Shown here: positions 23,005 through 34,858 of the stretch, piece by piece | Layout: each line of letters starts with the position of its first letter | Numbering within the stretch: the stretch's first letter is position 1 | DNA from: a virus | Lineage: Duplodnaviria; Heunggongvirae; Uroviricota; Caudoviricetes | Reading direction: 5' to 3' (one strand) | Virus record (IMG/VR): IMGVR_UViG_2671181094_000008 | Location: 1 to 40,078 of that record | DNA length: 40,078 nt | The notes under the pieces: model-generated | The model's database searches: none | The model's input: only the letters and a program-made list of their open reading frames with translations | What the model was told of the DNA's origin: nothing | Program-made: the position numbers and the translations under genes

Positions 23005-23194
23005 AATCTGGTTCAGGGCTCTGCGCGGAAGGGTTTTGACGTGTCGTGCAGCACGTCTCTACCCAAGAGCCCTGACCGGATCGCAGGCATAAAAAAGCCC
23101 CGGCGGATTGCCGAGGCTAATTTTACAAACTGGTATATGACTATCATCTTCATGCCGCCACTTAAAGTTAAGGCAGCATATCAAAGTAGACTCA

Positions 23195-28797: not shown

Positions 28798-29652
28798 TCA
28801 GTCCCTCGCCCATGATGGGATTTCAGTCTGCCCGTAATCCTTCCCTGAGAAATTTTCGGCAACTCGCACCTGTTGACTTGGTTGAGGCTTGGCACCATTT
28901 GGCTCAAACAGGCCTTGCCAGCCATTGGCGATGCTGCGGTTGATAATTTCTTCGGGCGAGTAACCGTTCAGTCTGCAGCGGTCCAGCAGGTTGATAGCCT
29001 GGGTGACCGTCTGCTGAGACTTGATCGGCTTTTTCAGGTCGCGACGATATGCCACCCATGACGACCAGATTTCTGCAGAAAGCCAGTCAGGCAACTGAAC
29101 AGCTAACGCATCGAACGAAACCGCCCGGGGGGATTTAGGGGGGTTATTAATATTGTCTTTATTGTCTTTTGTATGTTTGTCTTTTGTGTTTACCTGATTC
29201 GGGTAATAGGCGTTACCTGATTCGGGTAAACTTTTCTTACCTGATTCGGGTAATGTTACCTTTTTCAGGTAAGGTTTTTTTTCTTTACCTTTTACGGGTA
29301 AAGATGACCATTCGCTGACCGTTTTATTAATCCCGATAACACGACCGGTTTGAGTTAATATCCCCCGCTTAACCAGGACGCTTTTTGCAGCTGAGCACTT
29401 ATGCGGGAGAATGCCGGTCAGCTCCGAGAGCTGCTCGTTACTGACCCAGTCAGATTTCTTGTTGAAGCCGTATGTTTTGCGCATGACAGCCATGAACACC
29501 AAAAGCTGATGCTGCGACAGACCCGCACGCATGACAGCTTCAAGGAGCTCATTGGCGATGCGCGTAAACCCATCGTCGAGATCTGCCACGCGCAGCTCCT
29601 GTAGTGCCACGACAGGCACAGGGAAATTGATTACCTCGGCAGTATTTGCCAT
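28798..29652 (-). CDS. Replication initiator, lambda O-like
   Basis: Position after cII, an internal iteron array with a K/D/N-rich linker in the reading frame, followed by the helicase-loader gene. Confidence 0.75.
   Translation of the reverse strand: MANTAEVINFPVPVVALQELRVADLDDGFTRIANELLEAVMRAGLSQHQLLVFMAVMRKTYGFNKKSDWVSNEQLSELTGILPHKCSAAKSVLVKRGILTQTGRVIGINKTVSEWSSLPVKGKEKKPYLKKVTLPESGKKSLPESGNAYYPNQVNTKDKHTKDNKDNINNPPKSPRAVSFDALAVQLPDWLSAEIWSSWVAYRRDLKKPIKSQQTVTQAINLLDRCRLNGYSPEEIINRSIANGWQGLFEPNGAKPQPSQQVRVAENFSGKDYGQTEIPSWARD
29144..29302. repeat. Replication origin: five iterons plus adjacent AT-rich tract inside the O-like gene
   Basis: Iterons TACCTGATTCGGGTAA at 29191..29206, 29214..29229, 29238..29253, with degenerate copies TACCTTTTTCAGGTAA (29257..29272) and TACCTTTTACGGGTAA (about 29287..29302); each is an internal palindrome TACC-N8-GGTA. 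AT-rich tract at 29144..29190. Confidence 0.75.
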
Positions 29653-29959: not shown

Positions 29960-29999
29960 TTGTGATACTTCCTCTGGTGTTGTTTGGAATGGCCGCTGG

Positions 30000-30227
30000 T
30001 TAGGCGGCCGGTGAATGCGCGCTCAGCAACTGAGCAAGGTCAGGCCTGATCTCTGCCGCCTTAATCTTGCCGTTGGTCGCAGACACGATTTTCATTACAT
30101 AGCGAGCGTCAATTCCGCCGCCATGCAGCCAGCGCCAAACTGTCGGCTGCGCTACGCCACACAGATCGGCCAATTTTTTCTGACTGCCAGCGATATCAAT
30201 TGCCTTCTGGATGGTTTTGTTCGTCAT
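30000..30227 (-). CDS. Cro-like HTH repressor
   Basis: Start MTNKTIQKAID preceded by AGGAA; first gene of the rightward operon, divergent from cI. Confidence 0.6.
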   Translation of the reverse strand: MTNKTIQKAIDIAGSQKKLADLCGVAQPTVWRWLHGGGIDARYVMKIVSATNGKIKAAEIRPDLAQLLSAHSPAA

Positions 30228-30259: not shown

Positions 30260-30288
30260 ATAATAGCAATGCGTATTGGTTTTAGCAA
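30260..30288 (-). promoter_or_regulatory. PR-like early promoter with embedded operator
   Basis: Minus strand TTGCTA, 17-nt spacer, TATTAT; operator palindrome CAATGCGTATTG (30267..30278) in the spacer. Confidence 0.55.
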
Positions 30289-31304: not shown

Positions 31305-32069
31305 GTGATCAGAATAGGAAGGTTACTACCTGGCGGCATTGCAATTGACGAAGGGCAACATCACCCGATAAAGGGCGTTGCTCTTTTGATAAAAGAAAAT
31401 AGCGAACCAGAAGAGATTGTTGTTTTTGCAAAAGAAATATCTTCTAGGAGCATTTCTATAGAAATAACCTGCGCAGCCTTGGGAAGAGCTCTATCCCTGC
31501 CTATACCCGAGCCAGTACTACTGTTTGACAGCTCAAACAAAGCATTTTTTGGTAGTGTTGATGCTACCTATCCGAGTTTCATGAAGTATGTTTCTAACTC
31601 TTCAGATCAGGCCGTTTCTGATGCTTTGGCATCATGGCCGTTATTGAAAAAAGCTAGCTATTTTGATGAGTGGATTGCGATGGATGACCGTCACAACGGA
31701 AATTTGCTTTTCAATGGTGATGGTTTCTTCCTGATAGACCATGAATCGGCAATTCCCCAAGGTCTTGCCCCTGACCTTTTCGGGATAGATTATTACTCCA
31801 ATCAATTGCTGCAGGTAGCAACTTACATACTCGATAGAAGTAATGATATAGCCGTTCAGATGATGGCAAATGAGGCGAGAGCTTGGACCATGTCTTGCAA
31901 GAGTAACACCCTAACGCTATTAGATGGAGAGATATCCGAAACAGTTCAAGGTAAAGAGAAAAATCAAATAATGTCTTTCCTTTCATCTAGAATTGAGTTA
32001 CTAGGAGACATTCTTTATGATCAAATCAAGCCCCAACAAACACAGATGATATACGATGCTAAATCTTGA
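31305..32069 (+). CDS. HipA / PI3-4-kinase-like fold protein
   Basis: GTG start with AGAGG 8 nt upstream; catalytic-loop-like DRHNGNLLF and downstream FFLIDHES; AT-rich; co-oriented downstream of cI. Confidence 0.5.
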   Translation: MIRIGRLLPGGIAIDEGQHHPIKGVALLIKENSEPEEIVVFAKEISSRSISIEITCAALGRALSLPIPEPVLLFDSSNKAFFGSVDATYPSFMKYVSNSSDQAVSDALASWPLLKKASYFDEWIAMDDRHNGNLLFNGDGFFLIDHESAIPQGLAPDLFGIDYYSNQLLQVATYILDRSNDIAVQMMANEARAWTMSCKSNTLTLLDGEISETVQGKEKNQIMSFLSSRIELLGDILYDQIKPQQTQMIYDAKS

Positions 32070-32937
32070 TCAGCTTCTTAAGTCAGCTCCTGCTATGCCT
32101 GCAACATCAGGGCGCTGGGCATCTGTTTATCTTGAACCAATGATCGGCTCAGGAGAGCGGCTCACGGTAGCAGTTGCCACGATAACATCATCTGGTGAAA
32201 TTTTAGTTAAGCCGGCAATCAGAAAAGAAGTTATAGAAGCTATGTATGGCTTCAAAGCACCAGCATTTATCAATGTGGTTGATCTGATTTTGTCGAGTTT
32301 GAAGTTGCATCTGGCTGCTAAGGGGGATTTCGTATCATGGCATCCTCCAGTTACAGGCGTCACTATAAGCGCCGTAAGGAATGCTGCGTCATCAAGCCCT
32401 GTTGGCATACTCCGCCAAGCGGTATCATTGTCATCGAGTTTGTCATCACTCCTTGAGGCTGAAGAAGATTCCGATGGGTTGCCAGCTAAGCAATCAAGAA
32501 CTAAAGACAGGTGGCCAATTCAAATCTTTGATGCGGTTATCAGCGCTGACGGACGCAGGGATATTTTTTTCAATAGAAGCTTCACCTTTAGTGATGGACA
32601 CAGACCGGCTAAAATTTTCTATCTAAGCGATCATGCAGCTATCAACACCGGAAAACTGTTACCCCACAACTTGAATGAGCAGGTTAAGGATGGAAAAGCA
32701 AAAATATCTGACTTATCAATGATAAAAAGGCAAGGCGATATTTTTCCAAGAGAAACTCATCAAATGATTATCTACAAACCGGAAGATGATAGCCCTGCAT
32801 ACAATGATAGGCACATAGCATCAATAAATAGTGCGTACCTTTCTTTACAGGACTTGGCTAACACCTACGATGTATCAATCACTTCTGTAAGCACTGCCGA
32901 GCATGCAGCAAGGTTAATATTGCAAACTGCAGCATAA
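32056..32937 (+). CDS. Hypothetical protein, translationally coupled partner of the kinase-like gene
   Basis: 293 aa; start overlaps the upstream gene by 14 nt; no motif I recognise; AT-rich. Confidence 0.5.
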   Translation: MLNLDQLLKSAPAMPATSGRWASVYLEPMIGSGERLTVAVATITSSGEILVKPAIRKEVIEAMYGFKAPAFINVVDLILSSLKLHLAAKGDFVSWHPPVTGVTISAVRNAASSSPVGILRQAVSLSSSLSSLLEAEEDSDGLPAKQSRTKDRWPIQIFDAVISADGRRDIFFNRSFTFSDGHRPAKIFYLSDHAAINTGKLLPHNLNEQVKDGKAKISDLSMIKRQGDIFPRETHQMIIYKPEDDSPAYNDRHIASINSAYLSLQDLANTYDVSITSVSTAEHAARLILQTAA

Positions 32938-32945
32938 CTTTTGAT

Positions 32946-32970
32946 CCGGCCACCGCGCCGGGTTTTTACT
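32946..32970 (+). terminator. Rho-independent terminator ending the cI-cassette operon
   Basis: CCGGC-loop-GCCGG hairpin followed by GTTTTTAC immediately after the cassette stop. Confidence 0.5.
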
Positions 32971-32973
32971 GCC

Positions 32974-33177
32974 CTACTCTTCCCTCAGCATCAGCACGTC
33001 CAGCGCCAACTCCACAGCCAGATCGACCTGGTCTTCCTGCCACAACACCTGAATCATCTCTATCAGCGCCTCTCTTGATGGCTCGCGCCTCTCAACCAGC
33101 AGCTGCATAACCGCTATCCCGATGACCTGCGCAATCTGCGGGTGCATCTCTGCGAAAAACTCATCCTCATTCGACAT
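32974..33177 (-). CDS. Small acidic hypothetical protein, convergent with the cI operon
   Basis: Start MSNEDEFFAEMHPQ chosen; gene begins at the edge of the OL-like operator region. Confidence 0.4.
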   Translation of the reverse strand: MSNEDEFFAEMHPQIAQVIGIAVMQLLVERREPSREALIEMIQVLWQEDQVDLAVELALDVLMLREE

Positions 33178-33289
33178 GGCGCTACCCTTTTTGGCGTTTT
33201 TTTGAGCATAACAGCACAATAGGAAAAAATAAATTCATTTAGCTATCAATGATTTAATAGCAATAGCTATCAAATAATAACAATACGTA

Positions 33290-33318
33290 TTGCTATGGTT
33301 AATACTCATTGCTATTAT
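33290..33318 (+). promoter_or_regulatory. pL-like early-left promoter with OL-type operators
   Basis: TTGCTA, 17-nt spacer, TATTAT (same architecture as PR); perfect palindrome CAATACGTATTG at 33281..33292 overlapping the -35, plus TAGCAATAGC-type repeats upstream. Confidence 0.55.
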
Positions 33319-33397
33319 CATCTCATCCAAACAACACCGGCAACGCCGGGGTGAAGTCAAAACGTCCCGTTAGCCGCGATAAGGCAAAGGTGAAGAG

Positions 33398-33505
33398 ATG
33401 ATCCGCGAAGAAGACAAGCCTGCATGGCGTAATTTTTGGTTAAAGGTCGTTCCGTTTTTGGTTGCTGTTCTCGCAGTTAGCTATCCGTGCTGGGGTGGCA
33501 AATGA
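33398..33505 (+). CDS. Small membrane peptide (35 aa), first gene after pL
   Basis: MIREEDKPAWRNFWLKVVPFLVAVLAVSYPCWGGK; AGGTGA 6 nt upstream; ATGA overlap with the next ORF; not in the ORF track. Confidence 0.35.
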   Translation: MIREEDKPAWRNFWLKVVPFLVAVLAVSYPCWGGK

Positions 33506-33612
33506 GCAAACAAGGCATTCGTTCACTGATTTACTGCCTGCTGATCTGCGGCGTTATCTGGTCGGCTGTTGTTATCAAAATTCTGCACGTTACGGGGGTG
33601 TTCAATGGCTAA
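33502..33612 (+). CDS. Small membrane peptide (36 aa)
   Basis: MSKQGIRSLIYCLLICGVIWSAVVIKILHVTGVFNG; overlaps both neighbours; not in the ORF track. Confidence 0.35.
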   Translation: MSKQGIRSLIYCLLICGVIWSAVVIKILHVTGVFNG

Positions 33613-33799
33613 CTCAATTCCTAACAGCGGACGCGCCGTGATGATGCGTAACGCTAAAACTGGCGCCACCTGGAAGGTTTCACGTGACTACCTGAAAGAA
33701 ACCTTCTGGTTCGAGCCACAGGGCAACCTGCGCCACATTCGCAAAGCATTTGAGGCACGCGACCTGCTGCCGAATCTGGTTCCAGCCGGGACGCATTAA
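33605..33799 (+). CDS. Hypothetical protein (64 aa)
   Basis: Start MANSIPNSGRAV with a G-rich Shine-Dalgarno upstream; third of three overlapping small genes. Confidence 0.4.
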   Translation: MANSIPNSGRAVMMRNAKTGATWKVSRDYLKETFWFEPQGNLRHIRKAFEARDLLPNLVPAGTH

Positions 33800-33886: not shown

Positions 33887-34858
33887 ATGAGCGAAATAAT
33901 GGATTTAGTCGTCATCGAGAAAAAGAACGCGATGGCGGTTTTCACCAATAACGACCAACTCGATCCGCTTATCGAAGCGATCGAAAAAGAGGCTCGCAGT
34001 CTGGTGCCGGACGTGACCACCAAAAAAGGCCGCGATGCTATCGCATCCATGGCTCACAAGGTCGCGCGCTCTAAAACCTACATCGACAACGCAGGTAAAG
34101 CCCTGGTCGCTGAGCTGAAGGCGCTGCCAAAGCAGATTGATGAAAGCCGCCGCGTTGTCCGTGAGCGTCTCGATGCACTGAAAGATGAAGTGCGTCGCCC
34201 GTTGACCGAATGGGAGGCGGAGCAGGAACGCATTAAGGCCGAAGAAACCATGAACGCCCTTCACGTCGAAGCACTGGCCATGAATGAAGAGTTCGATCGG
34301 CAGCTGGCAGCTCGGATTGAGTCTGACCACGAAATGGCCCTGCTGATGAATGACGCTTTCGACCGAGAGCAGGCGGATAAAGCAGCTGAGGCTGAGCGCC
34401 AGCGCATTGCCCATGAAGAAGAAATTAAGCGAATGGCAGCCGCCGCAGCAGCCCGAGAAGTTGAGCAGCGCGCACAGCGTGAACGTGAAGAAGCGGCGCA
34501 TCGCGAAGCTGTGTTGAAAGCACAAGCTGAGCAGGCAGAGCGAGATCGCATTGCAGCCGAGAAGAAAGCTGAGGCTGACAAGCAGGCCGCTATCGAAGCG
34601 GAGCGCCGCAAAGCTCAGGAGGAAGCCGATCGCATCCGCCGCGAGGCAGAGCAACGCGAACAGGCCCGCCTGGCTGAGGAGAAACGTAAAGCCGATGAGC
34701 AGGCTCGCCGCGAAGCCGACGTTAAGCACCGCAAGGCTGTAGGCACTGAAATCGTCAAAGCTCTTCTGGCCAATACCAGCCTTACTCGGGATCAGGCTAT
34801 CGAGGTGCTTACAGCGGTTAAAGACGGCTGCATTCCCCATACCGGTATCAGTTACTGA
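33887..34858 (+). CDS. Coiled-coil protein with E/R/A/Q-rich central domain
   Basis: 323 aa; AGGGGA Shine-Dalgarno; long charged heptad-like region AEQERIKAEE...REAEQREQARLAEEKRKADEQARREAD. Confidence 0.5.
   Translation: MSEIMDLVVIEKKNAMAVFTNNDQLDPLIEAIEKEARSLVPDVTTKKGRDAIASMAHKVARSKTYIDNAGKALVAELKALPKQIDESRRVVRERLDALKDEVRRPLTEWEAEQERIKAEETMNALHVEALAMNEEFDRQLAARIESDHEMALLMNDAFDREQADKAAEAERQRIAHEEEIKRMAAAAAAREVEQRAQREREEAAHREAVLKAQAEQAERDRIAAEKKAEADKQAAIEAERRKAQEEADRIRREAEQREQARLAEEKRKADEQARREADVKHRKAVGTEIVKALLANTSLTRDQAIEVLTAVKDGCIPHTGISY

Follow-up and report, generated by a model that had tools for sequence, protein, structure and literature searches.

A putative kil module at the head of the early-left operon in a Klebsiella-type lambdoid prophage

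What opens the early-left operon of a lambdoid phage in which no N-like antiterminator is recognizable? The virus record IMGVR_UViG_2671181094_000008, whose 40,078 nucleotides make up the window analyzed here, is a lambdoid prophage of the Klebsiella type and raises this question directly downstream of its early-left promoter, pL. Three small open reading frames (ORFs) follow the promoter: ORF1 (33398-33505, + strand), coding for a predicted 35-residue single-pass membrane peptide (MIREEDKPAWRNFWLKVVPFLVAVLAVSYPCWGGK); ORF2 (33502-33612, +), coding for a second such peptide of 36 residues when counted from ATG (MSKQGIRSLIYCLLICGVIWSAVVIKILHVTGVFNG); and ORF3 (33605-33799, +), coding for a basic soluble protein of 64 residues. 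The original prediction for this DNA, made from the sequence alone, had described three overlapping small genes opening the early-left operon, two of them encoding hydrophobic peptides of 35-36 residues and the third a 64-residue protein, and our analysis confirmed their coordinates and products. The locus is a phage kil module, an element of a known kind; what is new is an uncharacterized third family in the kil slot and a largely unannotated peptide pair in front of it. We give about even weight to the fuller reading, in which this Klebsiella-type lambdoid prophage is N-less and its CI-repressed early-left operon begins with a "kil module".

Three small genes directly behind pL

A promoter scan placed pL at 33290-33318 (+), with the -35 element TTGCTA, a 17-nt spacer and the TG-extended -10 element TATTAT. 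The promoter is overlapped by two operators, a near-perfect 20-bp palindrome, ATAACAATACGTATTGCTAT (33277-33296), and a second, weaker oL site (33300-33315). Within the window the operator half-word ATAGCAATRCGTATTG is found only at these two sites and in the cro-cI gap (oR, 30263-30278), with 0.04 chance matches expected. Because the word is common to oL and oR, we identify the site as oL/pL, and the assignment of the three genes to the early-left operon stands. Transcription is likely to start near 33325; in heteroimmune relatives, sequence conservation begins approximately 7 nt past each phage's own -10 element.

ORF1 and ORF2 are joined by an ATGA overlap (33502-33505). The ATGA type had earlier been proposed for the overlaps in general, which holds for this junction and not for that of ORF2 and ORF3, an overlap of 8 nt (ATGGCTAA, 33605-33612). 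A G-rich run resembling a Shine-Dalgarno sequence lies 4-7 nt before each ORF start: AAGGTGA for ORF1 (33387-33393, +; near-invariant in the leader alignment), GGGGTGG for ORF2, within the 3' end of ORF1, and GGGGGTG for ORF3, within the 3' end of ORF2.

Relatives were collected from IMG/VR, 80 loci via ORF3 and 160 more via ORF2; IMG/VR loci with an ORF2 relative number 352-370. ORF2 is exactly 36 codons long in 65 of the 67 distinct peptides, which form four allele groups with less than 60% identity, and an alignment of 10 sequences chosen to represent the alleles shows no variation at M1, S2, G5, R7, S8, L9 and W20. The 71 distinct ORF1 peptides are 35-38 codons long and fall into five groups separated at the same level (<60% identity). 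Every allele of both peptides is hydrophobic enough for a membrane helix. Taken over the most hydrophobic 19 residues, the Kyte-Doolittle mean comes to 2.13 in ORF1 (minimum 1.53) and 2.44 in ORF2 (minimum 2.02), with approximately 70 distinct peptides considered for each, compared with about 0-0.6 in other frames. Both peptides thus have the make-up of small single-pass membrane peptides, namely one hydrophobic stretch of approximately 19-23 residues with short polar ends, kept despite divergence. The ratio of nonsynonymous to synonymous substitution rates (dN/dS) is 0.36 for ORF1 and 0.22 for ORF3, versus 0.7-1.7 in shifted frames, and ORF2 is taken to be a gene because its length is fixed and its start, stop and hydropathy are maintained in alleles that have diverged strongly. 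On these sequence-based grounds, ORF1, ORF2 and ORF3 are confirmed as real genes directly after pL, beyond what chance would produce.

ORF1 is not annotated in the RefSeq record of the E. coli ES2 prophage, which shares 99% identity with the window over a 1.1-kb stretch around ORF1-3. Natural 98-residue fusions of ORF2 and ORF3 (proteins P0016 and P0017) occur rarely in public data; they are explained by a single G missing from the G5 run at 33594-33598 (region 33590-33612) and may be either real variants or sequencing errors. A search with PADLOC returned no match for ORF1-3, nor for the 67- and 323-residue neighbors described below.

The slot behind ORF2

The lead to a possible function of this locus came from a tblastn search with ORF2, which identified Klebsiella phage ST405-OXA48phi1.2. 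In this phage, genes for an ORF1-like 35-residue peptide and an ORF2-like 36-residue peptide are followed, with the same 8-nt overlap, by a gene for a 97-residue protein that matches the Pfam family PF06301 (Lambda_Kil) with an E-value of 1.8e-10 and a score of 40.5 bits (curated cut-off, 27.6). In other relatives, including phages Mulock and GZ7, the slot is taken by a protein of 68-74 residues. The 68-residue version matches NCBIfam NF008465 "FtsZ inhibitor protein" (KilR of the Rac prophage) with an E-value of 6e-19, under the 92-bit cut-off of that family; it can be aligned with KilR of K-12 and commonly bears the name "cell division inhibitor protein". Among 202 distinct regions, the gene overlapping the ORF2 stop codon belongs to the ORF3 family in 101, is lambda-Kil-like in 54, KilR-like in 46 and something else in a single case, and its offset from ORF2 is -8 in every locus listed.

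Lambda Kil blocks FtsZ assembly through ZipA (PMC3961180), and KilR, predicted to consist mainly of beta-sheet with disordered ends, inhibits both FtsZ and MreB (PMC12482147). An AlphaFold2 model of the KilR-like protein has six strands (predicted local distance difference test score, pLDDT, 84). Since Kil or KilR homologs hold this slot in relatives, the interval is a phage kil slot. The two identifiable occupants being established division inhibitors, the likeliest role of ORF3, proposed from its position and given about even odds, is that of a third, sequence-unrelated inhibitor of host division or morphogenesis. Kil-like function had previously been suggested for the two peptides. Such a role is sensible for the region, and the replacement pattern in the slot makes ORF3, not the peptides, the candidate for it. 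The other role suggested for the peptides, that of exclusion factors, fits poorly, as genes behind a repressed pL would be silent in the lysogen. The label "cell division inhibitor" in Mulock and GZ7 was rejected as evidence on ORF3, because it belongs to the 68/74-residue KilR-like allele; the Mulock paper does not discuss it.

ORF3 is a member of phrog_3722, a PHROG of unknown function, and searches with it gave no Pfam match even at E ≤ 10 and no NCBIfam match. The family is tiny, with 23 clusters in a collection of 5.8 billion proteins and 31 profile matches among 1.8 billion representatives. The AlphaFold2 model, of low confidence (pLDDT 60), is all-beta, with four to five strands and a disordered N-terminus, and the fold is probably all-beta; a Foldseek search of this model against the PDB and viral models returned nothing significant.

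Several observations weigh against a kil module in which ORF3 is the inhibitor. There is no Pfam or NCBIfam match and no BLASTP alignment between ORF3 and Kil or KilR, the hhalign probability for ORF3 and KilR is 0.4%, and Foldseek, with the low-confidence ORF3 model, gives no link either; remote homology to KilR, or a fold in common with it, is unsupported. Positional replacement in mosaic phage genomes is no guarantee of the same function. Residue-level constraint on ORF2 is weak (dN/dS of 0.88, no better than shifted frames), and in 105 of 119 sequences ORF2 is spanned by a second open frame.

The absence of homology to either Kil family also speaks for another explanation, that the position after ORF2 is a recombination hot-spot for small accessory genes and that ORF3 does something else, for example anti-defense, restriction alleviation or protease control. 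Conserved junctions are places at which unrelated genes are exchanged in lambdoid genomes, as in the cI-pL gap of this same group, and the junction here (the ORF2 C-terminus GVFNG with the overlapping ATG) could be a mere recombination linker. Against this, a free-for-all slot would be expected to hold more diverse genes than the three occupants that account for 201 of the 202 distinct loci, and the two identifiable occupants have the same known function. We regard the hot-spot as possible, at perhaps half the weight given to a kil module.

Under the kil-module reading, pL would fire once CI leaves oL, producing a transcript that starts near 33325 with a short leader. Ribosomes would load at AAGGUGA, translate ORF1, move to ORF2 at the AUGA junction and then to ORF3 at the 8-nt overlap, where its ribosome-binding site lies inside the 3' end of ORF2. 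Such coupling, which the anatomy of the junctions suggests, would yield the three products together and keep the 5' end of the operon covered by ribosomes. Judging from hydropathy conserved across divergent alleles, ORF1 and ORF2 would enter the inner membrane as single-pass peptides, and ORF3, by its position, would block host division or morphogenesis early in lytic growth.

The peptide pair is found behind the conserved C/A-rich leader described below in 135 regions and behind an unrelated, Rac-like leader in 52 regions, all of the latter with a Lambda-Kil-like allele in the slot. Insertions by other genes are seen before ORF1 and between ORF1 and ORF2, and two Klebsiella loci have ORF2 and a KilR-like gene without ORF1. 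By comparison of these sequences, ORF1 and ORF2 form a portable cassette found with each of the three kil types, with ORF2 as the tighter partner of the slot. Because three unrelated proteins follow the pair, a specific complex of the peptides with all of the slot proteins seems unlikely.

The insertions vary among relatives. Some carry, between ORF1 and ORF2, a gene for a soluble protein of 71-89 residues (phrog_2201-like, of unknown function) located approximately 315-330 nt upstream of the ORF3 start (L010, L013, L022, L023, L026, L033, L044, L054 and L080); in this gene the MSK start junction and the ATGA overlap recur. Others have different small genes between the leader and ORF1. In ST405-OXA48phi1.2, the sequence upstream of ORF1 resembles that upstream of kilR in K-12 Rac, near the annotated KilS small RNA (L206, 3130-3396; L287, 3731-3900, - strand), so that the peptide pair appears to be inserted between a Rac-type leader and the kil gene.

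Three roles were considered for ORF1-ORF2, which may attack the divisome from the membrane side, act on FtsH in the manner of cIII, or meter a toxic downstream product. It is conceivable, although we think it rather unlikely, that the pair represents a new class of host-takeover membrane proteins working with cytoplasmic Kil-type inhibitors, with ORF3 as a third, structurally distinct Kil. In one version of this proposal the pair may block the divisome from the membrane side; in another it may be a cIII-like brake on FtsH that links the lysis-lysogeny decision to the division block.

A narrower form of the second idea makes ORF1, ORF2 or both functional replacements of CIII that restrain FtsH and stabilize CII. 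CIII is an amphipathic peptide that associates with the membrane, in which FtsH is anchored. The start of lambda kil is overlapped by cIII, a place that ORF2 has here as well as next to true Lambda_Kil; the phage also has a CII gene, and neither RefSeq annotation nor a tblastn search of the window and approximately 360 related loci revealed a CIII. On the other side, Pfam and tblastn reveal no similarity of ORF1 or ORF2 to CIII (tblastn missed true Kil homologs too, and is thus insensitive at such sizes), their helices are fully hydrophobic and not amphipathic, Rac-like phages, whose immunity system is different, carry the pair as well, and some loci retain ORF2 without ORF1. Replacement of CIII is, in our view, improbable.

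We attach still less probability to a third explanation, that ORF1 and ORF2 are mainly upstream frames, which deliver ribosomes to a toxic kil-type gene and shield the transcript from Rho in the absence of N. The tight overlaps, in which one ORF already contains the ribosome-binding site of the next, speak for it, as do the high dN/dS of ORF2 and the coincidence of the conserved C-termini of ORF1 and ORF2 with downstream start signals; moreover, kilR of Rac is silenced by Rho/NusG (PMC5793797). A spacer ORF, however, would not need the features kept by each of the approximately 70 distinct alleles, namely membrane-helix hydropathy, fixed length and a charged N-terminus, nor the invariant W20 of ORF2, and the dN/dS of ORF1 also argues against it.

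The early leader and the absence of N

Lambda N is a small arginine-rich-motif (ARM) protein and classically the first pL gene. The remark of the original prediction that no such protein is evident held up in every type of search. The first three pL genes encode two hydrophobic peptides and a beta-rich 64-residue protein, not an ARM protein; no N-like match was obtained with PHROG, Pfam or NCBIfam profiles; no arginine-rich, ARM-like ORF lies in a plausible position; tblastn with lambda N found no match in the window or related loci, except for one unrelated motif-scan locus; and N is absent from the RefSeq annotation of the ES2 prophage, which has Q. ORF3 was rejected as an N-like protein, being beta-rich, without an arginine-rich motif and without homology to N.

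The 73-nt leader (33325-33397, +) is conserved from the inferred +1 position onward, and it is kept across at least eight heteroimmune operator/promoter types and before at least six different first genes. It has no Rfam match. RNAalifold predicts seven pairs, none of them compensatory, with no covariation, and the single-sequence fold is no better than that of shuffled sequence (z of approximately -0.1). A 16-codon basic mini-ORF in the leader (GTG at 33352, with an ATGA overlap with ORF1) was rejected because the frame lacks a start codon in leader variant C.

The leader does contain the GC hairpin that had been noticed after the pL start, CCGGC-AAC-GCCGG with a 5-bp stem and an AAC triloop, located at 33337-33349 (+), 2 nt to the left of the earlier estimate. 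It is present in 92 of the 135 relatives with this leader, among which only the loop varies, and the other 43 have a different sequence instead. Lambda nut sites consist of boxA and a boxB hairpin with a GNRA-like pentaloop and are found in both the pL and the pR transcript. The suggestion that the hairpin is nut-like fails on its triloop, on the lack of boxA and boxB in the pL leader, on its replacement in relatives without covariation, and on the lack of a counterpart on the pR side, where the hairpin has a different sequence and lies on the opposite side of a shared motif.

This shared motif, CCAAACAACACC (33327-33338, +), is C/A-rich and sits where the pL transcript has its 5' end, inside the leader's first 15 nt. 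Its only other exact copy in the window, at 29987-29976, is in sense in the pR transcript. The pR-side counterpart (29976-30009, -) is made up of a GC hairpin (30009-29991) across the cro stop codon, then CATTCCAAACAACACC, then the ribosome-binding site of cII, an arrangement shared by at least 59 IMG/VR loci, in which the cro genes in front of it are diverse. The motif is conserved across heteroimmune relatives on both sides, just outside the immunity region. We considered it as a translational enhancer, a small RNA target or a recombination linker; it might conceivably be an N-independent regulatory RNA signal of the N-less lambdoid group. For the idea of a GcvB target, duplex energies of whole leaders were no better than those of shuffles. 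A Rho-loading site was judged unlikely at pR, where the untranslated cro-cII gap is only about 45 nt long.

HK022 put is a conserved two-stem-loop RNA of approximately 70 nt in both early transcripts. Like put and lambda nutL/nutR, the motif is a conserved sequence present in sense in both early transcripts, outside the immunity region. It differs from lambda N/nut in its sequence, order and structure, and in that no N, boxA or boxB was found here; it differs from put in that no conserved two-stem RNA or covariation was found, the early transcripts sharing only the 12-15-nt unstructured motif.

The terminator scan detected no convincing intrinsic terminator on the strand of the pL operon. The pR operon has a terminator-like hairpin at 26476-26459 (-), in the gap before the nin/Q region and thus in a tR2-like position, and a strong one at 23096-23118 (-), just downstream of Q in a tR'-like position. 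That the hairpin, the C/A motif or both are a nut- or put-like antitermination or processing signal, acting with an unrecognized phage factor, with a host factor or alone, is very improbable: an exact 12-mer in both early transcripts, which on the left is kept behind at least eight immunity types and on the right behind diverse cro genes, and a terminator-like hairpin in front of nin/Q would suit it, but there is no N-like protein, boxA, boxB or Rfam match, the triloop hairpin is missing in a third of relatives and has neither covariation nor a pR twin, motif and hairpin come in opposite order on the two sides, the pL strand has no convincing intrinsic terminator, the cro-cII gap is short, and the small-gene module also occurs behind the unrelated Rac-like leader.

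Lambdoid prophages that have Q but in which no N was found form a common group in Klebsiella and E. coli; they raise the question of how delayed-early transcription is secured, and the hairpin at 26476-26459 that of how an N-less phage reaches Q. These phages may or may not need antitermination; the pL strand is without a convincing intrinsic terminator, and the pR strand has one terminator-like hairpin before nin/Q as well as the tR'-like one after Q.

Neighboring genes and known systems

The small-gene module is essentially limited to phages and prophages of Klebsiella and Raoultella, with some spill-over into E. coli. The 1.1-kb region has a match in 63 of 5,426 complete genomes and is 82-96% identical to approximately 26 Klebsiella phage records. 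In the RefSeq annotation of the ES2 copy, cro, cII and replication genes lie on one side of CI, with Q further along the right operon. The other side comprises, in order, CI, two accessory genes, a gene for a 67-residue protein on the opposite strand, the small genes, and then genes for a 323-residue protein, GamL, Bet, Exo, a methylase, Xis and Int. The window has the corresponding order ORF1-ORF2-ORF3-(323 residues)-gamL-bet-exo. Its 323-residue protein (phrog_1376; 33887-34858, +), encoded between ORF3 and gamL, has a long middle part rich in Ala, Glu, Arg and Lys that is probably coiled-coil; the gene is missing in some relatives, such as phage ST11-VIM1phi8.2.

The 67-residue protein (phrog_3946; 32974-33177, -) is very acidic and is encoded divergently from oL/pL. 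The gene has a promoter-like sequence, TTAACC-17-TATTAT, at 33302-33274, overlapping the operators, and it is kept beside pL in heteroimmune relatives; lambda has no equivalent. The cI-pL gap holds two overlapping accessory genes (31305-32937, +), the first coding for a 254-residue protein with a weak PADLOC match to PDC-M66A (E-value 2e-6) and the second for a 293-residue DUF3037 protein (phrog_21150). Occupants of this gap in the phage group are RexAB, a ParA-like gene, or a kinase-like gene paired with DUF3037. Because relatives carry RexAB or a ParA-like gene there, the position suggests a swappable defense or exclusion cassette expressed with cI. A GC hairpin (ccggccaccgcgccgg) followed by TTTTT was seen by eye at 32942-32975, in the interval that separates the accessory genes from the 67-residue gene; it could terminate the cI-side transcript, and the terminator scanner did not list it. 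Elsewhere in the window, TTACCTGATTCGGGTAA occurs twice, 24 nt apart (29213-29253, +), within the replication-initiator gene (28798-29652, -), and the pair looks like origin iterons.

Kil-type proteins show how temperate phages freeze host division, and they are used as probes and leads against FtsZ. If the proposed reading is true, ORF3 would be a candidate for a third, sequence-unrelated Kil family, very small and limited to Klebsiella-type phages, and a pair of membrane peptides of approximately 35 residues, mostly missed by annotation, would accompany each of the three Kil types.

In lambda, cIII (33299-33463) overlaps kil (33187-33330), which lies just upstream of gam-bet-exo. ORF3 is likewise a small early-left gene near gam-bet-exo whose start is overlapped by a preceding small gene, and true homologs of lambda Kil (PF06301) occupy its position behind ORF1-ORF2 in the 54 relatives counted above. 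ORF3 itself differs in having no PF06301 match and in being predicted as all-beta, whereas a helix-turn-helix core is reported for Kil (PMC11762379); in lambda, moreover, the gene upstream of kil is cIII, not a pair of membrane peptides. ORF2 matches CIII in position, as a small peptide gene directly upstream of and overlapping kil. ORF1 and ORF2 differ from CIII in sequence, in number and in their fully hydrophobic transmembrane helices.

KilR of Rac (NF008465; PF27398), with 68-74 residues, is similar to ORF3 in being soluble and beta-rich with disordered ends (PMC12482147), and its homologs hold the ORF3 slot with the 8-nt overlap in 46 relatives, Mulock and GZ7 among them. It has no detectable homology to ORF3, and in Rac itself kilR comes after a long leader and the KilS small RNA. 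The first genes after the Rac repressor, ydaG and ydaF, were rejected as counterparts of ORF1 and ORF2, as they are not hydrophobic.

Small single-pass membrane proteins that inhibit division include SidA and DidA of Caulobacter. Another is gp56 of phage SPO1 (10.1101/2020.02.06.938217). No homology of these three proteins to ORF1 or ORF2 was found; as short transmembrane proteins of phage growth or stress that block late divisome proteins, they offer, by analogy only, a precedent for ORF1 and ORF2 acting beside a cytoplasmic FtsZ inhibitor. The analogy for ORF3 would be with the Kil-type division inhibitors as a class, given that it shares its slot, its overlap and its upstream peptide pair with two bona fide Kil families.

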